The notes under the pieces were generated by a model. That model had not been told where the DNA came from. It saw only the letters and a list, made by a program, of their open reading frames with translations, and did not search any database. From the NCBI GenBank assembly GCA_019326865.1, contig GCA_019326865.1_4101.1: a DNA stretch of 64,000 bases. One strand, written 5' to 3'. This DNA is from a phage. Both the position numbers and the translations under genes were made by a program. The first letter of the stretch is position 1. Each line of letters starts with the position of its first letter. Below, piece after piece: positions 14,955 through 34,353 of this stretch.

Positions 14955-14965
14955 GGAGAAATAAA

Positions 14966-15583
14966 ATGAAATCTCATGATTTAGCAAAATTACTACTATC
15001 TCAACCAAATCTAGACATTTATCATTATGATGTGGATAGTGAATTGCATTATCAGAATTTTGATAATAAATTAATGGTCACCCCATCTGGTATTTTCACA
15101 ACGGTAAAACCTACATCAGTTTCTGAAAATGTACTTACACCATACGAAACCCCCCTCTTGGGTCATGTACAAATTTTCTTTAAGGATGGTACTATTACTC
15201 CAAAATTGGAGGGTTCATATATTCAAACTGTTCTTAACTTAGAATCTGGGTTGATATTTAACATTCCTTATGAAAAACCAATTGTTTTATTAGGTAAAAA
15301 TCAATCAGCACTATCAGGGAATCAAAATGCTGTTTGGTATACACCCGATGATATTGATTTCATTTCTGTACTGACAGAATATGAACCTAGCACTTGGCAT
15401 GGAACATGGGAAACTATGTCGTATGATGAAGCAATTGAATGTGGTAAAAATTTAGTTAAAATGTTATTTCCACAAAAAGAAGAACTTTCACAAGAACAAA
15501 TTGATTCATTTTCTAAAGATTTTCCTGATTCTGAATTCAATGTAAAAGTATCACCTTCTATGATTGATAAAATTGAAAAATAA
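14966..15583 (+). CDS. hypothetical protein (paralog of ORF at 16319)
   Basis: 205 aa; N-terminus MKSHDLAKLLLSQPNLDIYH resembles MKAKDLAALLMQNPEMEVYH. Confidence 0.65.
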   Translation: MKSHDLAKLLLSQPNLDIYHYDVDSELHYQNFDNKLMVTPSGIFTTVKPTSVSENVLTPYETPLLGHVQIFFKDGTITPKLEGSYIQTVLNLESGLIFNIPYEKPIVLLGKNQSALSGNQNAVWYTPDDIDFISVLTEYEPSTWHGTWETMSYDEAIECGKNLVKMLFPQKEELSQEQIDSFSKDFPDSEFNVKVSPSMIDKIEK

Positions 15584-15589
15584 AAGAGG

Positions 15590-15949
15590 TTGAACATGAG
15601 TGATTATCGCGTAACATCTGGACTAATGGCACGTCTTATTGAAGCAGTTCCTGAAGATGATTATGAAGCTATTTCAGATCGTCTTTTTGAAGCAGATTCT
15701 AAGCTCCATATTACATATGATGGTACATTAATTTACAGTACTGATATTGATATTCCTAGCTATGAATTTGAGATTTCTTTTGGTAGCAAACTAACTACTG
15801 AAGAATTCGCTCGAAAATGTGAGCGTGAAGGGTTGTGTATTGATATTAGTTCAGTTCAGCCATATACATCACTGTGGTATGATGGTACTGATAGTCCAAT
15901 GTCTACTACATCTTTAAAGGATTTTCTAAATGCAAATCAAAAAGATTAA
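15590..15949 (+). CDS. hypothetical protein
   Basis: 119 aa ORF. Confidence 0.6.
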   Translation: MNMSDYRVTSGLMARLIEAVPEDDYEAISDRLFEADSKLHITYDGTLIYSTDIDIPSYEFEISFGSKLTTEEFARKCEREGLCIDISSVQPYTSLWYDGTDSPMSTTSLKDFLNANQKD

Positions 15950-17690: not shown

Positions 17691-18018
17691 AGGTTCAACT
17701 CAATATAAATGCATTACTGAGATCAGGAAGAAAGACGGAACACTAATTGACAGGCAATTAAAACAGGAGTATAAAGACCTAATAGATGTTCTACGAAATG
17801 AAAGTTTTGGTGGTAAGCGTAGACAGAAGATTTATGAATTCATGAAGAATGGTTTGGAAATTCAAGTTAATGGTATTCATTGTACACAAACCAAAAATGA
17901 TCCAGATATTTTACGTCTTTTAAAAGAGGGTAAAATAGAAATGTTTAATGTCCCTATTTCATCCTACGGCAATAGACTAAAATGTAAGCACACATACTTA
18001 AGGATGAAAAATGGGTAA
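17668..18018 (+). CDS. hypothetical protein
   Basis: 116 aa ORF, basic. Confidence 0.55.
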   Translation: MRLKVALRGSTQYKCITEIRKKDGTLIDRQLKQEYKDLIDVLRNESFGGKRRQKIYEFMKNGLEIQVNGIHCTQTKNDPDILRLLKEGKIEMFNVPISSYGNRLKCKHTYLRMKNG

Positions 18019-18595
18019 ATTAGTATATTACTATGGTAGTATGTCCAGTGGTAAAAGCACTCATCTTTTACAAAACGCATATAACCATAAGAAAAATGGA
18101 ATGAAGGTAATTTACTTAACCAGTGCACTTGATGATCGTTATGGAACCGGAAAGATCACTTCAAGAATTGGTATTGAAGCTGATGCTGAAGTAATTCCAA
18201 AAAATGACATTAGTGTTCTTCTTAAAGTTAAAGAAACACTCAATAATGATGTTGACATTAACAGCATTTATGTTGATGAATGTCAATTTTTAAACAGAGA
18301 GCAGATTGACCATTTGGCTGATATTGCCGATAATTATGGTGTTGATGTTTCCTGTTATGGTATTCGAACAGATTTTGAATCTAATCTATTTGAAGGTTCC
18401 CACCGACTTTTTGAAATAGCTGATGATATACATGAACTTAAGAATGTGTGTGAGAATCAGAAGTGTGGGAAAGAAGCTACCATGAATGCACGTATTGTAG
18501 ACAGTACTGAAAAAGTTTTCATTGGTGGTAACGAATCCTATAAAAGTTTGTGTAGAAAATGTTATAAAGAATATATGAGGAATAAAAATGGCTGA
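18011..18595 (+). CDS. tk: thymidine kinase
   Basis: P-loop YYGSMSSGKST and overall type II thymidine kinase layout with C-terminal Cys pairs. Confidence 0.9.
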   Translation: MGKLVYYYGSMSSGKSTHLLQNAYNHKKNGMKVIYLTSALDDRYGTGKITSRIGIEADAEVIPKNDISVLLKVKETLNNDVDINSIYVDECQFLNREQIDHLADIADNYGVDVSCYGIRTDFESNLFEGSHRLFEIADDIHELKNVCENQKCGKEATMNARIVDSTEKVFIGGNESYKSLCRKCYKEYMRNKNG

Positions 18596-26817: not shown

Positions 26818-27135
26818 TTGACAAAAATGACTATGACCGTTAAACTACTAAACATCAATAACATTGGCCCAGTACTAGCAGTTCTTCAAACTGATTCTGC
26901 TGAAGCAGTGGTAGTTAACTACCCAGCACAACTAGGTACTGATGAAAATGGTGAAATCATTCTTCGTGATTATCTAGAGTTTGTTAGTATGGAGAAAAAT
27001 GTTATTTTTTATAAATCCAACATTATTAGTGTTAGTGATGCAAACCCTGCATTGGTTGATGCTTATGTTGATGCTATTAAAGCAATCGAAGATACTCCAA
27101 AAGTTTTTGTTCCTGAGAATAAAATTATTCTATAA
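26818..27135 (+). CDS. hypothetical protein
   Basis: 105 aa ORF. Confidence 0.55.
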   Translation: MTKMTMTVKLLNINNIGPVLAVLQTDSAEAVVVNYPAQLGTDENGEIILRDYLEFVSMEKNVIFYKSNIISVSDANPALVDAYVDAIKAIEDTPKVFVPENKIIL

Positions 27136-27149
27136 TAGAGGTATATAAA

Positions 27150-27527
27150 ATGGCTGCTAATGACGTTAAAGTAAAAACTATTCAAGCTATCGTAGTACTG
27201 AAAGATTCAACTCCATCTCCTAAAGAATTGGTAATGGCTGGGATGACAATGCTTCATCAATACAATCCTGAATCACCAAATTATGTTCAAGAATACGAAG
27301 CAAAGCAGTTTAAAGAACATTGGCAGTCATGGATTAAAGATAATGAAATGGAGCAAGTTGTTTATGCTGCTGATGACATTTTCGAATTAGAACAAATTGA
27401 ATATCTAGCAGGTCAACAATCTGTGCCGTTGAGTATCTTCGGTAATGGTGAAGAAGTCTTAGTTCTAGGACCATTCACTGCCGATGTAATTACACACTTA
27501 CTAAGTAATTGTGAAAAAATTGGCTAA
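27150..27527 (+). CDS. hypothetical protein
   Basis: 125 aa ORF. Confidence 0.55.
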   Translation: MAANDVKVKTIQAIVVLKDSTPSPKELVMAGMTMLHQYNPESPNYVQEYEAKQFKEHWQSWIKDNEMEQVVYAADDIFELEQIEYLAGQQSVPLSIFGNGEEVLVLGPFTADVITHLLSNCEKIG

Positions 27528-27790
27528 ATGCTTAAAATTATCAGGATACCGAAACAATACATTGATGTTAAATAATATAAAGTATTGGGTTGATCCATAC
27601 TTTAATAATTCATTGTTAATGTACAGAGATAAAAGTCGAGATTTATACGGAATATATGTTACACAGTTAATATATGCTATAGATTCAGAACATTTTACTC
27701 CGTTGGTATACCTGTACTGTTTGTATAATTCAGAATAAGTATTAGCACCTCTAAATAATGTATATATAAACATTAATGAGGTGCTTTTTT

Positions 27791-28582
27791 ATGTCTTACA
27801 ATTATATGGGTGGAAATCCAGATGCTCCTAACTTTGATCATCGTGAAAAACTGAAAGATGTTATCACTCAAATGTTGGGAGCAGGTGCAGTTGAGGTAGA
27901 AATTACTGATGGTCAATTAGAAATTGCAATTGATAATGCTGTATCAAATTACAGAGCGTGGAGTTCTGCTTCTAAAGAAGAAGCTTTTTTAAATATGAAA
28001 TTTTATGATTCACAATCTGTATATATGCTCCCAACTGAAGTTGAAATAGTTAAAAAGATTTACCGCTATGGTAATGGTTATTTAAGTTCTGGGTCAGGTA
28101 ACAGCGTAGACCCATTCTCATTGGCATTCACGAATACATATCTATTGACGTCGGCTAGGAATGCAGGTGGATATGATCTAACAACTTATGATTTCAGCTT
28201 TCAATTTCAAGAATTGGTTGGTCGTATGTTTGGACGTGAAATTATATTCCAATTTAACCCAATGACTAAGAAACTTATTATTGATCGTGATATTCGCGGT
28301 ACAGAAGAAGTATTACTACATGTGTATCATAATATTCCAGAACCATTATTGTTCCAACGTCAGCAAAGCTACCCGTGGCTTCGTGATTGGGCATTGTCTG
28401 AAGCAATGATTATGCTTGGTCGTAACCGTGCTAAGTTTGCTAGTTTGCCTGGACCACAAGGGACATTTTCAATGGATGGTGATACATTAAGAAATGAAGG
28501 TATCCAATTACAAGAACAACTTAAAGAACAGTTGAAGCGATATAAAGATGGTGGAGAACCACTTGGAATGATTATCGGGTAA
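27791..28582 (+). CDS. putative virion structural protein
   Basis: start at second ATG (MSYNY...) with GAGGTG RBS; position at the head of the structural block; no family recognised. Confidence 0.5.
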   Translation: MSYNYMGGNPDAPNFDHREKLKDVITQMLGAGAVEVEITDGQLEIAIDNAVSNYRAWSSASKEEAFLNMKFYDSQSVYMLPTEVEIVKKIYRYGNGYLSSGSGNSVDPFSLAFTNTYLLTSARNAGGYDLTTYDFSFQFQELVGRMFGREIIFQFNPMTKKLIIDRDIRGTEEVLLHVYHNIPEPLLFQRQQSYPWLRDWALSEAMIMLGRNRAKFASLPGPQGTFSMDGDTLRNEGIQLQEQLKEQLKRYKDGGEPLGMIIG

Positions 28583-28609
28583 ATTTTAAACATTAAAAAA
28601 GAGTACTAT

Positions 28610-30604
28610 ATGAATAATGAAGAATTGAAAAAACTTTTGTTGTCAAAACATATTAATTCATGGGTACATTTATACAAAGGGGACTCTCATGTGAGGGATC
28701 TCCTTTCTGTTTTTGGAATAGAACCAAAAACTGATTTCGAAATATATAAAATTCTATATATGTTCATGAATGATATAACAACAGTTCCAACTGCATATTG
28801 TGGAAAAAAAGCAAGATACAAAAATTATCAAAAAGGATTTTATAAATTTTGTGATGATTATGTAATTAATAAGAAAAATACGTGTAATGTATGCCATGAG
28901 ATGTATTATAAAAATCGAACTAATAAAACAAAATCAACATTAATGAATATGTATGGTGTATCTAATGTATCCCAGATCCAAGAAGTAAAACAAAAGAAAG
29001 AAAAAACTAACATTGAACGTTATGGTGTCTCTACTAATTTACAGACAACAGAATCTAAAGAGAAAATCAAACAAACTAATATAGAGCGATATGGATGTGA
29101 ATATCCAAATCAAAACCCTGAAATATTCAATAAAGTAAAAGAAACAAATTTAAAAAAGTACGGTGTTGAATTCCAAAGTAAAAGAAATGAAGTAAAAGAG
29201 AAAGCCAAAAATACAAATATATTAAGATACGGAACTGAGTATTCTTTATCATCACCGACTATTCGTGAAAAAATCAATAAAACAAATCTTGAACGATATG
29301 GTGGAAACCCACTATCAAATAAATTTATCCAAGATAAAATAAAAAACACCAACACATTGAAGTATAATTCATTTTACCCAATGAGCAATATGAGTGTTCA
29401 GGAAAAAGTTCATAATACCAATGTGGAGAGATATGGTGTAAAACACCCAGCCCAAAATAATTCTATTATTGAAAAAATGAAAGAAACCACAAAAAATAGA
29501 TATGGTTCAGAACATTACTCACAAACTGATGAGTATAAAGAAAAAATGTCATTTGCTCGTCTAGATGAAAGATATAATATAATTGTTGCAAATATTGATA
29601 AAAACTATATTCCATTATTTGAAAACACCGACCTGATGATGAAAGTTAATACAGACGAATACCCATTTTGGTGTGAGTATTGTGATGATTTGTTTTATAG
29701 TAAGTATAAAAATCATAAAGTGAAATGTAAGTGTCAGAAAAATAATGGTCATTCATTGAAAGAGAAAGATTTAGTTGATTATATAAAATCATTAATACCA
29801 AATATGCAAATTATAGAAAATGACCGTTCAGTACTGAAACCTAAAGAGTTGGATGTGTATATCCCTGACCGAAATCTAGCTATTGAATTTAATGGTGTGT
29901 ATTGGCATAATGATGAAAATGTCAATTCCACTAAACATCAAGATAAGGTATTGGATTGTTTAAAACATGGGGTAAATCTTATTCACATTTATGAAGATGA
30001 ATGGGATAACCCATTAACAAATAAAATTATCAAGGAACGTTTAAAGAATAAACTTCTAGTGTCAAATAGAATTTATGCTAGAAAATGTACTGTTAGAAAT
30101 ATAGACAAACAAGTAAGTAATATGTTTACTAAATCACACCATATTCAAGGTGTTGCACAAGCAAGTATTCACATTGGTCTTTATTATGGAAGTGATTTAG
30201 TTGCAGTTATGACCTTTGGTAAATCAAGGTTTGATAAAAACTATGAATATGAATTAATCAGATACTGTTCATCCGGTACAGTTGTTGGTGGTGCATCAAA
30301 ATTACTAAAATATTTTGAAACAGTATATAATCCACAATCATTATTGACATATGCTGATATGGATTGGAGTAGTGGTGATCTTTATACAGTTCTTGGCTTT
30401 GAGTTTGATAGCTATACAGAACCTGGATATTTTTATTATGACCCACAAACACATGAGAGGATTTCACGTCAGAAATGTCAAAAACATAAATTGGTCAAGA
30501 AAGGTCATGATATCAACTTAACCGAGAGACAAATTTGCTGTGAGGTATTGGGATATTATAAGATTTACAACTCTGGTAATATAAAATACACAAAAAAATA
30601 TTAA
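28610..30604 (+). CDS. multidomain protein: Cys-rich N-terminus, nine tandem repeats of about 23 aa, PD-(D/E)XK nuclease-like domain, C-terminal domain of unknown function
   Basis: repeat core K-x-T-N-x-E-R-Y-G occurs nine times; ELDVYIPDRNLAIEFNGVYWH resembles the DUF559/Vsr-like nuclease core. Confidence 0.6.
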   Translation: MNNEELKKLLLSKHINSWVHLYKGDSHVRDLLSVFGIEPKTDFEIYKILYMFMNDITTVPTAYCGKKARYKNYQKGFYKFCDDYVINKKNTCNVCHEMYYKNRTNKTKSTLMNMYGVSNVSQIQEVKQKKEKTNIERYGVSTNLQTTESKEKIKQTNIERYGCEYPNQNPEIFNKVKETNLKKYGVEFQSKRNEVKEKAKNTNILRYGTEYSLSSPTIREKINKTNLERYGGNPLSNKFIQDKIKNTNTLKYNSFYPMSNMSVQEKVHNTNVERYGVKHPAQNNSIIEKMKETTKNRYGSEHYSQTDEYKEKMSFARLDERYNIIVANIDKNYIPLFENTDLMMKVNTDEYPFWCEYCDDLFYSKYKNHKVKCKCQKNNGHSLKEKDLVDYIKSLIPNMQIIENDRSVLKPKELDVYIPDRNLAIEFNGVYWHNDENVNSTKHQDKVLDCLKHGVNLIHIYEDEWDNPLTNKIIKERLKNKLLVSNRIYARKCTVRNIDKQVSNMFTKSHHIQGVAQASIHIGLYYGSDLVAVMTFGKSRFDKNYEYELIRYCSSGTVVGGASKLLKYFETVYNPQSLLTYADMDWSSGDLYTVLGFEFDSYTEPGYFYYDPQTHERISRQKCQKHKLVKKGHDINLTERQICCEVLGYYKIYNSGNIKYTKKY

Positions 30605-30610
30605 TAAAAA

Positions 30611-30639
30611 GACTCCTACATGGGGTCTTTTTTCTTTTT
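30611..30639 (+). terminator. intrinsic terminator
   Basis: stem GACTCC/GGGGTC (one G-U), long T-run. Confidence 0.6.
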
Positions 30640-30642
30640 CTG

Positions 30643-30651
30643 TGATATAAT
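30643..30651 (+). promoter_or_regulatory. extended -10 element TGATATAAT
   Basis: exact 9-mer; directly after the terminator and upstream of ORF 30679 and the dNMP kinase gene. Confidence 0.4.
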
Positions 30652-30678
30652 GTTAATATTAATAGAAGAGAATATATC

Positions 30679-30948
30679 ATGAATGATAATATAAATGTAA
30701 TGTATAACAGATATCGTTGTGGGAAACCAACGCTTGATTATGAATCCACGGAAAAGTACTGGAAATTTATAAAAGATTCAATAGTAGATGTCTTCGGTAG
30801 AGATCGTATAAATGCGTGGGCCAGTATATATCGTGATGAGCACGGAGAAACATTTTTCATTACTTATGTTTCTGTTTATAATAGTAACGAATCAATAGTT
30901 AAATTGCTTCAATGTTTGGTGGGGAAGGATTTGATTGTATTGGAATAA
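30679..30948 (+). CDS. hypothetical protein
   Basis: 89 aa ORF. Confidence 0.5.
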   Translation: MNDNINVMYNRYRCGKPTLDYESTEKYWKFIKDSIVDVFGRDRINAWASIYRDEHGETFFITYVSVYNSNESIVKLLQCLVGKDLIVLE

Positions 30949-30965
30949 TTTCATGGAGAAATATT

Positions 30966-31592
30966 ATGGAAAGACAAATAATCGCAATTAATGGAACAAT
31001 AGGAAGTGGAAAAGATACTTTTGCACAAACATTTATTGAAAATGGATATACAAAAATGTCATTTGCCACTAATTTAAAAGACTCAGTATCTTCTATTTTT
31101 GGGTGGGATCGTGAAATGCTTGAGGGAACGACTAAGGAAAGTCGCATGATTCGTGAAAAACCGGATAAGTACTGGTGTGAAAAATTGGGGCGTGATGATG
31201 TATCTCCTAGATGGGTATTACAAAATTACGGTACTAATATACTACGTAAGTATTTTCATAATGATATTTGGGTATTCAGTTTAGAAAAATCTATGCAAGA
31301 AGTAAATGGAAATATCATCATCACTGATTGTCGTTTTCCTAATGAATTAAAAATGATTAGATCTCAACATGGTACTATTATTGAAGTGCAACGTGTACTT
31401 CCACATTGGTATGGATTGGCGGCATCTTATAATAAAGGAAATATTAAAATTAAACCAGTAGAACTTGAATCAGTACATGAATCTGAGTGGGCGTGGATTG
31501 GAATAAACAAACCTGATATAATTATTCATAATAGCAGCACACTAGATGACTTACATCAAAAAGCAATGGCGATTATTTATTCTAATATGTAA
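30966..31592 (+). CDS. deoxynucleoside monophosphate kinase (T4 gp1-like)
   Basis: start moved to MERQ with GGAG RBS; P-loop INGTIGSGKDT parallels T4 gp1 LSGVKRSGKDT. Confidence 0.7.
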   Translation: MERQIIAINGTIGSGKDTFAQTFIENGYTKMSFATNLKDSVSSIFGWDREMLEGTTKESRMIREKPDKYWCEKLGRDDVSPRWVLQNYGTNILRKYFHNDIWVFSLEKSMQEVNGNIIITDCRFPNELKMIRSQHGTIIEVQRVLPHWYGLAASYNKGNIKIKPVELESVHESEWAWIGINKPDIIIHNSSTLDDLHQKAMAIIYSNM

Positions 31593-31689
31593 AATATAAA
31601 CAATAAAGACTTGTCATTTAGATCCTTCAATAAATAAGATTATACGAATATATAATTCGAACAACCAATTATTTTTGGAGGATTTTAAT

Positions 31690-34353
31690 ATGGCAGGAGA
31701 TCTACTCTCACCTGGCGTGTCTATCTCAGTAACTGATAACAGTATGAGTACTGCTGCTGCTCCAGGCACAGTACCACTATTTGTAATTGCTACTGCTGAA
31801 GACAAACTTGTTCCTGGTAGCAATGCAATTGCTGTAGGGACTACTAAAGCAAATGCAGGAAAACTACAGCTTTTGACATCACAGAAAAGCTCACTTGATA
31901 CCTATGGTACACCAATTTTCCAAACGAATAACGGTTCTGTTGTTCAGGGAGATGAACTAAACGAATATGGTCTACATGCAGTATATTCTTATCTAGGTAT
32001 TACTAATCGTGCGTATGTGATTCGTGCTGATATTGATCTAGCACAACTAGCACCAAGTGCACAAGCCCCAACAGGTCCAGTATCTAATGGCACGTTGTGG
32101 TTGGATACAGCACAATCACAAGTTGAGGCATATGTAGCTAAGAAAGACAACCCTAGTAGTTTTTATGATTGGCAACTTAAACCAGTTACTATTGTAAGTG
32201 CAGAAGAAATTGAGGATGTAAGTTTAGTAGGTTTGAATGTTGATGATTTGGTTCTACGTTATAAACCAAGTAATGGTCAGATGCTAATGTATAAACGTTC
32301 TGCTTCTGGTTTGGTGCAAATGGAAACTTACCTATCACCAATCAACAAAGTTCCAGTAGGCTCCACTGTGGAGAAAGGTAACATTTGGATTCGTGATGGA
32401 TATACCCAAAATGGCTCAAACTATTTTGGTACTCGTTTTGTTATTAAACGTTATGCATCTTTAACTCAAGTTTGGAATATTGTACCAGCATTTACTGGTA
32501 ATTCATTCCAAGAAATTGAAGCGAAAAGTGGTGTTCTAAACAATAGTTATATCGCATCTCGCTTTGATGATGATAGCAAAAGTTTCACTTTTTATATTCA
32601 AAGTGCAAAACTATCAACAATTAGTGCTCCTGCTTTGCCATTAGGTGAAACCATTATTGAACAAGCAGGTGATGATAGTTATATGATTTTTACTTATTTG
32701 AACAAATCTGTTAAAGTTCTAGCAGTACCGAACGGTGGTGTTATCAATACACAAACTATCATCAATAATCTAAATTCCAATGCTGAAGTAATTAACGATG
32801 GTTTTAAATTCAAACGTGAAACTAATGGTGGTTTGGTTATTACCAACACTAAAGGGTACAGTTTCAAAATTACCCAAAGTGGTGATGATATTTTTGCAGC
32901 AGATGAGCTACAAAAACTAACTGTAAACAGTAACAACTACTCCCAAATCAATCTTAAAAACTTCCGTGTTAGTTATGAAGTACCACGTAATATCGCAAAA
33001 GATGGTACATTATGGTATAATTTTGGAAACTCTGATAATTTAAATGTTACTTTGTATGTAGCTGATGTAGCAAACGACAAATGGGAACTTGTTCAAGACG
33101 AAAACAAATATGTACAAGTCGATGAGCCAGCAGCAGATCGTACAATTTGGGTATGCCCTCTTTCACAAGGTATCGATGGATACGAATTCTATCGTAATGT
33201 CGATGGTGAATGGGTTAAACTTGACAATACAGATCAAAGCACATTAAATGGTATGGTTTTCCATGACTTTAATACTCCATCAAAAGTTCCCGCTGCTGCA
33301 TTGTATCAAAATGGTATGTTGGCAGTAGACTTAGGCAATACTGAAGGTGTTGTTAAGAAAATGGTTAATGGAAAATGGGAAGTTGTTAGTGGTGTAAGTA
33401 TTGATGGTGCTGGTTTGTTTGGTCGTGCTGCACAACGTCAACTTGTCGTCGAAGCACTGGCAGCAGTTATTGTTGGTAATGATGAAATTCGTTCCGAATT
33501 TATTGATTTCAATCTAATTTGTGTACCTGGTTATGTTGAAACTCTAGCTGAATGTGTAACTTTAAATACAGATCGTAAAGAAACTGCATTTATCGTAACT
33601 GACGTTCCTGCACGATTGGACCCAACTGGTAATGGTAGTGCTGTTCAGAAATGGGCTACTAATGCTAATAATGCACCAAGTAATGGCCCAGTTGGTAGAA
33701 CAACTGCATATGATTATGCAGCCCAGTACATGGGGTGGTGTCTAAGTACAAACGTAGATGGTATGGAAGTTGCTGTACCAGGAAGCACTATTGCAATGCG
33801 TACTTATGCATATAGTGATAGCGTTAGTTATGTGTGGTATCCACCTGCTGGTACAACTCGTGGCGTTGTGACTAATGCTGCAAGTACTGGTTTCATTAAT
33901 AGTGAAGGTGAATATCAACCAGTTGTATACAATCAAGGCCAACGTGATGTTATGTATACAAACAACATTAACCCAATTGCAATGCGTCCGAATCGTGGTT
34001 TACTTGTGTATGGAGATAAAACGCTATCTGCTAATCAAACATCAGCACTAAGCCGCGTTAACGTCGCACGTTTAGTTGTTTATATTCGTCGTCAACTTGA
34101 AATTATTTCTGAACCATTCCTATTCCGTTTGAATACCCCAAGTACTCGTCAGGAATTCAGTGGTGTAGTTAATAGTTTCTTGGCAGAAATTGTTCAACAA
34201 CAAGGTCTATATAATTTCGCAGTAGTTTGTGACGAAAGTAACAACACTTCTGAACGTATTGACCGTAATGAACTTTGGATGGATATTGCAATCCAACCAA
34301 CCAAGTCTATTAACTTCATATACGTACCAATTCGTATTGAAAAGACTCAATAA
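31690..34353 (+). CDS. tail sheath protein (T4 gp18-like)
   Basis: start at MAGDLLSPG with GGAGG RBS; LLSPGV N-terminal signature and about 890 aa as in contractile sheath proteins. Confidence 0.8.
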   Translation: MAGDLLSPGVSISVTDNSMSTAAAPGTVPLFVIATAEDKLVPGSNAIAVGTTKANAGKLQLLTSQKSSLDTYGTPIFQTNNGSVVQGDELNEYGLHAVYSYLGITNRAYVIRADIDLAQLAPSAQAPTGPVSNGTLWLDTAQSQVEAYVAKKDNPSSFYDWQLKPVTIVSAEEIEDVSLVGLNVDDLVLRYKPSNGQMLMYKRSASGLVQMETYLSPINKVPVGSTVEKGNIWIRDGYTQNGSNYFGTRFVIKRYASLTQVWNIVPAFTGNSFQEIEAKSGVLNNSYIASRFDDDSKSFTFYIQSAKLSTISAPALPLGETIIEQAGDDSYMIFTYLNKSVKVLAVPNGGVINTQTIINNLNSNAEVINDGFKFKRETNGGLVITNTKGYSFKITQSGDDIFAADELQKLTVNSNNYSQINLKNFRVSYEVPRNIAKDGTLWYNFGNSDNLNVTLYVADVANDKWELVQDENKYVQVDEPAADRTIWVCPLSQGIDGYEFYRNVDGEWVKLDNTDQSTLNGMVFHDFNTPSKVPAAALYQNGMLAVDLGNTEGVVKKMVNGKWEVVSGVSIDGAGLFGRAAQRQLVVEALAAVIVGNDEIRSEFIDFNLICVPGYVETLAECVTLNTDRKETAFIVTDVPARLDPTGNGSAVQKWATNANNAPSNGPVGRTTAYDYAAQYMGWCLSTNVDGMEVAVPGSTIAMRTYAYSDSVSYVWYPPAGTTRGVVTNAASTGFINSEGEYQPVVYNQGQRDVMYTNNINPIAMRPNRGLLVYGDKTLSANQTSALSRVNVARLVVYIRRQLEIISEPFLFRLNTPSTRQEFSGVVNSFLAEIVQQQGLYNFAVVCDESNNTSERIDRNELWMDIAIQPTKSINFIYVPIRIEKTQ

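Follow-up and report, generated by a model that had tools for sequence, protein, structure and literature searches.

The window analyzed here, a 64,000-nucleotide stretch of phage DNA, is part of a jumbo coliphage of E. coli, a 121Q/PBECO4-like Asteriusvirus, and it raises the question of what an open reading frame (ORF) encoding a 664-aa protein with tandem repeats and a nuclease-like segment is doing between structural genes. The locus is laid out as follows.

27776 to 28582, + strand: gp13-like neck gene, the upstream host gene of the ORF, annotated in 121Q as 'neck (T4-gp13-like)'
28586 to 30604, + strand: inserted cassette of 2,019 bp (the ORF preceded by a 24-nt leader that holds a ribosome-binding site), its bounds set against relatives lacking the homing endonuclease gene (HEG)
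28610 to 30604, + strand: probable Hef-like homing endonuclease ORF (ATG start, 664 aa, PHROG 3339 match)
30606 to 30632, + strand: intrinsic terminator, the neck gene's pre-existing one, pushed downstream by the insertion
30641 to 30651, + strand: extended -10-like element TGTGATATAAT for the downstream genes, kept in HEG-less 121Q
about 27400 to 31400, no strand: putative co-conversion tract, the gene with ~1.2 kb upstream and ~0.8 kb downstream at high identity with TH47

A first, sequence-only reading had described a gene that lies between a virion gene and the dNMP kinase (dNMK) and sheath genes, and this description holds: the ORF is ATG-initiated and on the + strand, the neck gene, whose orthologues bear PF26809 (Phage_T4_gp13), is on the upstream side, and an 89-aa ORF, the dNMP kinase and the sheath genes are on the other. 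Its main proposal, a free-standing selfish endonuclease of the homing type, is supported by the PHROG 3339 match, the EDxHD/Vsr-like core, the sporadic presence of the gene, an island of identity with TH47 and the intactness of the copies, which are under purifying selection. We conclude that the ORF is very probably a homing endonuclease gene, free-standing and belonging to the Hef-like branch of the EDxHD family (Vsr-like, I-Bth0305I-type). Elsewhere the ORF is annotated as 'hypothetical protein' (UE-S1) or 'endonuclease domain-containing protein' (ph0011).

When the window was compared with 121Q by blastn, the alignment broke at 28585 and 30605, with both ends on the same 121Q base. The insertion is thus a clean one of 2,019 bp, and the empty site, found in 121Q, G17, BF17 and SD-15_S21, is conserved as TAAATT on one side of the insertion point and AAAA(G/A)GACTCC on the other. 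Neither a target-site duplication nor a terminal inverted repeat was found at the ends of the insertion, and transposon-type insertion was rejected for that reason. An Rfam scan of positions 27000 to 32000, at E values up to 0.1, returned no match, so the ORF is not intron-encoded. The terminator that had been credited to the gene as its own belongs to its neighbor: the same hairpin directly follows the neck stop codon in the gene-less 121Q, SD-15_S21 and G17, and the G17 annotation includes the terminator. A promoter element following the gene had also been noted; it is present, but is not the gene's own, and by comparison with gene-less relatives that keep it the extended -10 element is pre-existing and outside the mobile gene.

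The sequence-only reading had proposed to compare the locus across related phages, and the gene proved not to be universally conserved there: it is carried by 3 of 46 matching related records, and in at least 26 precisely this segment is missing, which makes up 30% of the query. A structural virion component was rejected as an identity since the gene is missing from most relatives. The lower-coverage Salmonella Asteriusvirus records (H30 to H35) are represented in our analysis by one case, SD-15_S21, whose reduced coverage is explained by deletions that bear no relation to the insertion and affect the neck gene and the 89-aa ORF/dNMK region. The window and TH47 are 96.8% identical from 27500 to 31500, across the gene and ~1 kb of each flank, as against 83.3% over the other ~38 kb compared, and the best 4-kb stretch of the whole comparison is centered on the gene. 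In the HEG-less G17, identity in those flanks is 86% vs its own average of 90%. The TH47 island is a putative co-conversion signature that would reflect recent lateral movement of the gene with its flanks, a signal that comes mainly from one genome pair (window and TH47) among genomes that are mosaic everywhere.

The protein itself is composed of five parts, mapped to the window below.

28610 to 28909, + strand: N-terminal domain, aa 1-100 (AF2 model, pLDDT 84-94)
28910 to 29596, + strand: DUF7487 array, aa 101-329 (nine 23-aa repeats and a degenerate tenth)
29672 to 29734, + strand: CxxC...CxC motif (C355, C358, C373, C375) between repeats and nuclease
29750 to 30025, + strand: Vsr-like/EDxHD PD-(D/E)xK nuclease domain, aa 381-472 (3r3p and Vsr matches)
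30041 to 30601, + strand: Mom-like GNAT domain, aa 478-664 (Foldseek and profile-profile match to phage Mu Mom)

The segment ELDVYIPDRNLAIEFNGVYWH, which had been recognized as resembling a PD-(D/E)XK, Vsr-like nuclease core, is present in the ORF and aligns to the Vsr-like nuclease domain of I-Bth0305I (PDB 3r3p) with an E value of 0.006 as a single sequence and 3e-8 as a family profile. The AF2 model of the domain (pLDDT 94.5) matches E. coli Vsr (1cw0) with a Foldseek E value of 8e-4 and a TMt of 0.53. In profile searches neither the repeats nor the nuclease-like region fell to a non-nuclease family, and an NCBIfam search with the 664-aa protein gave no match. Using the 3r3p alignment and the published residue list (PMC3239194), we mapped the I-Bth0305I catalytic residues E170, D196, N208, H213 and D222 (PMC3239194) to E385, D415, N428, H433 and D445, respectively; with E426 these make up the residues predicted by alignment to be catalytic. 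Across 100 homologues D415, E426 and K446 are invariant, H433 is 99% and E385 86% conserved, position 428 is Asn in 66% and Asp in 29%, and position 445 is variable (Asn in 44, Asp in 16, with Asp in the 664-aa protein). Among the EDxHD homing endonucleases, a family with I-Bth0305I as its prototype, Hef-type enzymes are listed as members (Taylor et al. 2011, PMC3239194). I-Bth0305I and the 664-aa protein both place their DNA-binding region, a probable one in the latter, N-terminal to the nuclease. Their sequence similarity is low. They differ in that I-Bth0305I has its gene inside a group I intron in recA and carries two NUMOD2/HTH motifs and no GNAT domain, whereas the gene studied here is free-standing and its product has DUF7487 repeats and a GNAT domain.

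Family membership points the same way. PHROG 3339, 'homing endonuclease', matches residues 233-664 at 1.4e-164, and tblastn with the 664-aa protein identified 419 phage records, many of them annotated as Hef-like or homing endonuclease. By tblastn, identity over aa 379-662 is 41-46% to the genes in H70 and H74, whose annotation reads 'Hef-like homing endonuclease', and Hef-like genes more widely align at 31-46% to residues ~380-664, which comprise a common core of Vsr-like nuclease and Mom-like GNAT domain; Hef-likeness was judged here against such annotated genes. Like the gene in the window, they are free-standing between conserved, often structural, genes, sporadic and often multi-copy: several copies per genome are common by tblastn (Campylobacter phages have as many as 12 places, UE-S1 has 4), and none besides the ORF itself was found by tblastn within the 64-kb window. 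At an E value of 1e-5 the family exceeds 3,700 proteins among the candidates scored. Many Hef-like matches span only the C-terminal ~40-45% of the 664-aa protein (aa ~380-664) and apparently consist of nuclease and GNAT domain only; to this core the 664-aa protein adds a 100-aa Cys4 N-terminus, the DUF7487 array of 9-10 units and a second zinc-ribbon-like motif. Hef-like genes also occur in Acj9, 133, LIMEstone (F-LimIII/VII/VIII/X) and Campylobacter phages of the CP81/CP220 type. Hef of phage U5, of the T4-related phages, was reportedly described by Sandegren, Nord and Sjoberg in 2005, in the single paper that is cited for experiments on Hef.

The C-terminal ~200 residues had been taken to be of unknown fold; the last ~190 form a GNAT domain with Mom as the closest solved structure. 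The top Foldseek match is phage Mu Mom (8bv8; E value 1e-7), about 1,000-fold ahead of the next GNAT, and the profile-profile probability for Mom is 95%, at an identity of only 17-19%. Mom, a GNAT enzyme, takes glycine from Gly-tRNA and attaches it to the N6 of adenine in double-stranded DNA (Silva et al. 2026, PMC13219725). The modified base made by the Mom family is N6-carbamoylmethyl-adenine. The Mom residues H58, R111, S124, D149 and Y159 correspond to H511 (99% conserved), R551 (99%), S563 (85%), D583 (79%) and Y592 (99%). The residues essential for momylation are R111, S124, D149 and R151, to which H58, Y59 and Y159 are added, and R151A abolishes Mom activity (PMC13219725); in the profile-profile alignment the position of R151 is occupied by D585 in the 664-aa protein and by Arg in ~40% of the family. 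Mom Y59 (I512 in the 664-aa protein) and W48 are not conserved. In the model of the GNAT domain, helices occupy the place of the HTH-like insertion of Mom, between the last strands, and the loop V-V-G-G-A-S-K looks nearer to the canonical GNAT CoA-pyrophosphate loop than that of Mom. Mom stands alone, whereas the Mom-like GNAT domain here is fused to a nuclease.

This fusion bears on an alternative in which the protein is a single-polypeptide conflict system resembling restriction-modification: the GNAT domain would modify adenines of its own phage, the nuclease would attack unmodified host or competitor DNA, and mobility would be secondary or absent. Such a role has been predicted explicitly for the Mom-REase fusions of jumbo phages, described as modification and restriction modules (Iyer et al. 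2021, PMC7824862). These share with the 664-aa protein an architecture class, a Mom-family GNAT with a nuclease of the restriction-endonuclease fold in a jumbo-phage genome, and are probably the same protein family. The words 'homing' and 'Vsr' are absent from the text of that paper, which therefore draws no connection of the fusions to homing endonucleases. The specific likeness of the C-terminal domain to Mom, the 79-99% conservation of H511, R551, S563, D583 and Y592, and a dN/dS in the GNAT domain of 0.04-0.09, the lowest in the protein, all speak for a conflict system. However, most close relatives lack the gene while infecting the same host species, and hence it is not a needed anti-restriction function; paralogues at different intergenic sites and the co-conversion island fit homing better; and the equivalent of Mom R151 is Asp. 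In addition, the Pfam Mom profile (PF25680) scores 18.0 bits against a gathering cut-off of 27.1 (E value 0.0025) over its first 50 positions only, and the PADLOC defence models do not match the 664-aa protein. Precomputed PF25680 matches are present in some homologues. The alternative is also not exclusive of homing, since modification could instead confer self-immunity at the homing site. The evidence at the locus favors homing over the modification and restriction reading of PMC7824862, and we consider a dedicated conflict system quite unlikely.

N-terminal to the nuclease the protein is built from zinc-ribbon-like elements and repeats. The first 100 residues are modeled as four helices and a β-hairpin pair with four cysteines (C64, C81, C92 and C95), and for three of these, C64, C81 and C95, conservation is 90% or more; by the model, this Cys4 hairpin pair is probably a zinc ribbon. 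The CxxC...CxC motif, modeled likewise as a β-hairpin pair and kept in 71-84% of homologues, is a probable zinc ribbon joining the repeats to the nuclease.

Between them, nine tandem 23-aa repeats had been described, and these are indeed in register at aa 101-306 (one unit has 22 residues), with a degenerate tenth added at aa 307-329. The core T-N-x-x-[RK]-Y-G occurs 7 times, where 20,000 shuffled versions of the protein never gave more than 3, and a single-repeat HMM recovers all nine units. The repeat had been thought to belong to no named domain; it is Pfam DUF7487, with a score of 136.2 bits where the gathering threshold is 27 (E value 2e-39), the match being limited to profile positions 1-118, the repeat part of the model. 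Model positions 119-220 correspond to another PD-ExK nuclease domain, which shorter members carry. The name DUF7487 occurred in none of the papers searched. In the AF2 model of the array (pLDDT 92.7) each repeat forms a helix of 15 residues and then a short turn, and no solved structural relative was found for the array. Its net charge is +16 in the 664-aa protein, with +1.4 per unit across the family. In nearly all of 240 relatives classified, which fall into three architectures of DUF7487-nuclease fusion, the array is followed by a PD-(D/E)xK-type nuclease (a few have no detectable one), and no other recognizable domain type accompanies it. These features suggest that the array is probably a DNA-binding module. 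Kinship with NUMOD3 was not supported: hhalign against I-TevI from the T4 genome aligned the repeats best at residues 108-120, outside NUMOD3 (E value 0.027, probability 1.8%), and Pfam detected no NUMOD match in the 664-aa protein. I-TevI and I-HmuI, with their NUMOD modules, and TALE proteins share with the 664-aa protein the logic of a nuclease tethered to an extended modular DNA-binding region.

The sequence-only reading had also offered a repeat-guided targeting factor, of which the probable DNA-binding module stands and a TALE-like code finds no evidence. In its full form this alternative holds that the protein is programmable: a few specificity residues in each 23-aa unit would read a single base, or else a short step, of DNA (or RNA), and the target would thus be spelled by the array. 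The period is strict (exactly 23 residues in 1,029 of ~1,075 successive pairs from 121 family members), the array runs from 3 to 18 units across the family and is nearly always fused to a nuclease, variable positions (5, 7, 17-19 and 21-23) alternate with the invariant K4, T8, Y13, G14 and Q20, and the confident helical-repeat model has no solved relative to constrain it. Yet the units are ~35-50% identical in protein sequence, with variation spread over many positions and no di-residue focus. At the DNA level, copies set apart by multiples of 69 nt have 61-73% identity, TRF reported no DNA tandem repeat in the region, and the units are old, with no sign of recent shuffling. Repeat-less Hef proteins exist, so the array is not required for family function. 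The TALE-like class is marked by two-helix repeats, 33-35 aa long and almost identical, that contain a hypervariable di-residue, and by structural similarity to TALEs; these marks were not found in the array, whose unit has one helix in 23 aa as opposed to two in 34 aa for TALE. A base-reading code is very improbable on this evidence.

Could the gene be a long-term resident? The orthologue in ph0011 (P0001) is 95% identical, and the four gene copies are all intact, at 1,995 nt each. In three more divergent pairs dN/dS is 0.04-0.15 per domain, and the highest value, up to 0.22, comes from the N-terminal domain in the nearly identical window/UE-S1 pair; all domains are under purifying selection, at a dN/dS of about 0.1. 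Two distant metagenomic jumbo phages carry orthologues of 52-56% identity at the same gp13/dNMK junction, where the macro and dNMK genes are 62-64% and 52-71% identical, respectively. The divergence of these orthologues resembles that of neighboring non-structural genes and would also fit long vertical residence followed by loss, and the presence of the gene in the four carrier phages could in part be common by descent. Nonetheless, a resident, immobile or domesticated nuclease (a regulator, or one excluding competitor phages) that has passed down vertically and disappeared from most Asteriusviruses, for which this matched divergence and the selection on all domains argue, is very unlikely given the TH47 island centered on the gene, the intact catalytic residues and a micro-position relative to the neck terminator that differs between lineages, which argues for separate insertions and thus for repeated use of the niche.

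For the homing endonuclease that we favor, the following course of events may be proposed. The gene has no recognizable promoter of its own and is probably expressed by read-through of the late neck-gene message, as it sits between the neck stop codon and the neck terminator; the neck gene is thus the likely source of its transcription, and is also a candidate location of the target site. On co-infection with a gene-less relative, the protein would bind a long target on or close to the neck/dNMP-kinase junction, where the basic helical array of 9-10 units and the zinc-ribbon modules would probably give an extended, degenerate grip on DNA. The Mom-like GNAT domain may help in DNA binding, being the sole extra domain in repeat-less Hef proteins. 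The Vsr-like domain would then cut, with E385, D415, E426/N428, H433 and D445 as its aligned active-site residues, and repair by recombination from the carrier genome would bring the gene, together with ~1 kb from either flank, into the recipient, and the pattern to be expected of such a step is seen in the TH47 comparison. The gene is dispensable to the phage, yet every domain is under purifying selection.

The conservation of a Mom-like active site is unaccounted for under a plain homing model. A broader reading would take the Hef-like family as 'homing restriction-modification' enzymes and the DUF7487 array as a previously unrecognized class of helical-repeat DNA-binding domains. In it, an active Mom-type GNAT domain may mark adenines at the element's target site, or more broadly across the genome that carries it, so that self-immunity may come from modification instead of target-sequence divergence and the Vsr-like nuclease may home into unmodified relatives; the number of DUF7487 units, one helix per 23 aa, may set the length of the recognized site across thousands of nuclease fusions. 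We regard this joint reading as unlikely.

The identity of the gene is settled for the purposes of annotation, and the neck/sheath boundary of Asteriusvirus genomes emerges as a recombination hotspot. One protein family joins the 'Hef-like homing endonucleases' of phage genetics and the 'Mom-REase fusions' of comparative genomics, for which different functions have been predicted. The family is large and contains, besides the nuclease, a Mom-like GNAT that keeps most of the Mom catalytic residues and a confidently predicted helical array. The array, should it read DNA in modular fashion, and the GNAT domain, should it modify DNA site-specifically, could each hold interest as tools; at present the gene stands as an ordinary selfish element of a catalogued family.

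The source phage belongs to the 121Q/PBECO4-type jumbo coliphages (Asteriusvirus; ~350 kb), and the closest relative of the window is Escherichia phage UE-S1 (97% identity over 6.7 kb). The 664-aa ORF proposed by the sequence-only reading is real, begins with ATG and has a G+C content of 26-29% versus 33-40% in adjoining genes. The locus is arranged as follows.

27776-28582: T4 gp13-like neck gene, directly upstream of the gene
28586-30604: clean insertion of 2,019 bp, from nucleotide alignment
28610-30604 (+): the 664-aa ORF
30606-30632: terminator hairpin of the neck gene
30641-30651: promoter element TGTGATATAAT
30679-30948: 89-aa ORF (phrog_34967), followed by a dNMP kinase and then the tail sheath gene

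Comparison of this locus across related phages revealed a sporadic distribution: only UE-S1, TH47 and ph0011 among 46 matching phage records carry the gene, and 26 other records align in two pieces, lacking exactly 30% of the query. In 121Q the sequence of the empty site is ...GGTTAAATT|AAAAGGACTCCTATATGGAGTCTTTTTT, and G17, BF17 and Salmonella phage SD-15_S21 share this empty site. The insertion point lies between the neck-gene stop codon and the neck-gene terminator hairpin; therefore the hairpin, previously attributed to the inserted gene itself, and TGTGATATAAT predate the insertion as the neck gene's terminator and the downstream promoter. The insert contains no target-site duplication or terminal inverted repeats, and no intron RNA was detected at the locus. 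With a start at 30912, the longest dNMP kinase ORF shares 30912-30948 with the 3' end of the 89-aa ORF; relatives are annotated from a later start (208 aa, 627 nt), so dNMP kinase in the window probably starts downstream of 30948. In SD-15_S21, 110 bp of the neck gene (corresponding to window 28353-28463) and ~400 bp over the 89-aa ORF and dNMP kinase start (30708-31113) are missing as well. These gaps could be real deletions adjoining the homing site or assembly artefacts; the SD-15_S21 record falls short of its relatives by 20-40 kb.

When blastn identity was projected onto the window over ~40 kb, TH47 was 96.8% identical across 27500-31500 versus an average of 83.3%, and the best 4-kb window of the entire TH47 comparison was centred on the gene. 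For ph0011, identity is 96-99% over the neck gene upstream; within the gene itself it is 92-97% (mostly 93-95%), with a sharp fall to ~80% at the gene's 3' end. Outside the flanks of the gene, the window is often more similar to G17, which lacks the gene, than to TH47; within those flanks G17 falls below its own average (86% versus 90%). Homing with co-conversion of flanking markers would be expected to leave such a pattern. All four gene copies (the window and the three carriers) are intact at 1,995 nt each, with dN/dS of 0.04-0.15 in each of the four domains for the three more divergent pairs; only in the window/UE-S1 comparison, between nearly identical copies, does the N-terminal domain reach 0.22.

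The gp13/dNMP-kinase junction also houses an orthologue, 52-56% identical to the window protein, in each of two metagenomic contigs from distant jumbo phages (L010 5001-7004, contig of 186 kb; L011 5001-7004, contig of 103 kb), neither of which has the 89-aa ORF. Relative to gp13, one orthologue follows the terminator and the other is placed just 3 nt past the stop codon, and this niche has therefore probably been entered more than once. The divergence of these orthologues resembles that of adjoining non-structural genes and is thus compatible with another history, in which the gene may have resided vertically for a long period before being lost.

The phage genomes compared here are mosaic, with local identity ranging from 70% to 99% over a few hundred bases. 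Within the same 40-kb comparison, a 205-aa ORF of unknown function (14966-15583, within window 14960-15596; phrog_18200) is another presence/absence polymorphism, found in the window and G17 and not in ph0011 or TH47. G17 lacks window 18014-18576 at a thymidine kinase ORF (18011-18595; Pfam TK, 9e-49). Extra DNA relative to the window, at ~10670 and ~23886, amounts to ~3.4 kb in G17 (L007 1485-4915, encoding tail-fibre-like ORFs) and ~1 kb in TH47 (L006 16512-17563).

PHROGs assigns the whole protein to phrog_3339, "homing endonuclease" (1.4e-164). The anticipated repeats are present as nine 23-aa units (one of 22 aa) in strict register at aa 101-306, followed by a degenerate tenth at aa 307-329. 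Seven copies of the core T-N-x-x-[RK]-Y-G are present, versus a maximum of three in 20,000 protein shuffles. The units are old at the DNA level: at spacings that are multiples of 69 nt, copies share 61-73% identity, and Tandem Repeats Finder reported nothing on the repeat DNA. Although not initially recognised as a named domain, the repeat matches Pfam DUF7487 (136 bits versus a cut-off of 27) over model positions 1-118 only. The 220-position model (PF24308) is a composite of about five repeats (1-118) and a classical PD-ExK nuclease domain (119-220), as seen on P0126, P0127 and P0129; the window protein has a Vsr-like domain in place of the latter. An AF2 model of aa 1-340 was confident locally (pLDDT 92.7, pTM 0.53), predicting a small helical and Cys4 N-terminal domain followed by repeats that would each form one 15-residue helix and a short turn. 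No solved structural relative of the array was found.

The nuclease-like segment ELDVYIPDRNLAIEFNGVYWH proved to be a genuine nuclease core by its match to I-Bth0305I (3r3p), the sole single-sequence match among PDB sequences (E 0.006, improving to 3e-8 with the family profile). This enzyme is the prototype of the EDxHD homing endonucleases. Taylor et al. 2011 (PMC3239194) named its catalytic residues and placed Hef-type phage endonucleases in the same family. Residues E170, D196, N208, H213 and D222 of I-Bth0305I correspond to E385, D415, N428, H433 and D445; among 100 homologues H433 is kept in 99%, and D415, E426 and K446 do not vary. The C-terminal ~200 aa, initially regarded as of unknown fold, match the Mom family alignment in profile-profile comparison (probability 95%, E 4e-8), with H58, R111, S124, D149 and Y159 of Mom, the phage Mu DNA adenine modification enzyme, aligned to H511, R551, S563, D583 and Y592 (79-99% conserved), and are therefore a Mom-like GNAT domain. 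In contrast, the essential R151 of Mom corresponds to D585, and Arg occurs there in only ~40% of the family.

Of the candidates scored, >3,700 proteins match at E < 1e-5. The family shows 3 to 18 repeats, a 23-residue period in 1,029 of ~1,075 spacings and the consensus [IV]-K-E-K-I-K-Q-T-N-L-E-[KR]-Y-G-V-E-N-P-x-Q. In nearly all of 240 relatives the array precedes a PD-(D/E)xK-type nuclease, a few having no detectable nuclease. Three architectures occur.

Array, Vsr-like domain and GNAT domain, as in the window protein
Array and Vsr-like domain alone
Array and classical D...E-x-K domain (members of 400-450 aa), whose nuclease is a relative of the Vsr-like domain (hhalign 96.6%, E 6e-10)

Many "Hef-like homing endonuclease" phage genes match only aa 380-664, the nuclease and GNAT domains without repeats. 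This modular spread would be expected of a DNA-binding accessory module. By tblastn the family is found in 419 phage records, often in multiple copies, with up to 12 places in a Campylobacter phage and 4 in UE-S1 (ON568341.1); this phage lineage therefore probably has three further Hef-like paralogues elsewhere in the genome, and no paralogue was found in the 64-kb window. Such genes are classed as free-standing homing endonuclease genes in the LIMEstone and T4-like genome papers (PMC3296691, PMC2993671).

A free-standing, selfish homing endonuclease, as first suggested, is the best-supported account of the gene, given the family assignment, intact catalytic residues, insertion polymorphism, identity island and purifying selection. 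For expression, target location, DNA binding by the repeats and cleavage, we infer the following. The gene would probably be expressed from the late neck-gene message through read-through; it has no evident promoter of its own, sigma-70-like matches not exceeding shuffled expectation. Binding to an extended site, located at the junction or close to it, would involve the repeat array, the putative zinc-ribbon motifs and possibly the GNAT domain, the Vsr-like domain would make the cut, and recombinational repair would copy the gene with ~1 kb of either flank.

The restriction-modification-like system envisaged by Iyer et al. (PMC7824862) for Mom domains fused to REase-fold nucleases in jumbo phages agrees with the strong conservation of Mom-like active-site residues, but we consider it improbable here, as R151 is not conserved and a genome-wide role does not fit either the distribution, which is sporadic, multi-copy and locus-specific, or the signal of co-conversion. 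The two ideas may be combined if site-specific modification gives self-immunity. A TALE-like code in the repeats is unlikely because the units diverge at many positions and are structurally unrelated to TALEs, and a structural role of the protein is ruled out by the gene's absence from most relatives.

The gene is already present in published genomes at 95-98% identity, and the PHROGs homing-endonuclease family, the Pfam DUF for the repeat and the Mom-nuclease architecture were already known. The remaining interest lies in two accessory domains of putative function and in a repeat array without a solved relative. Two literatures, one on the "Hef homing endonuclease" and one on the "Mom-REase fusion", seem to deal with a single set of proteins, for which they predict different functions.
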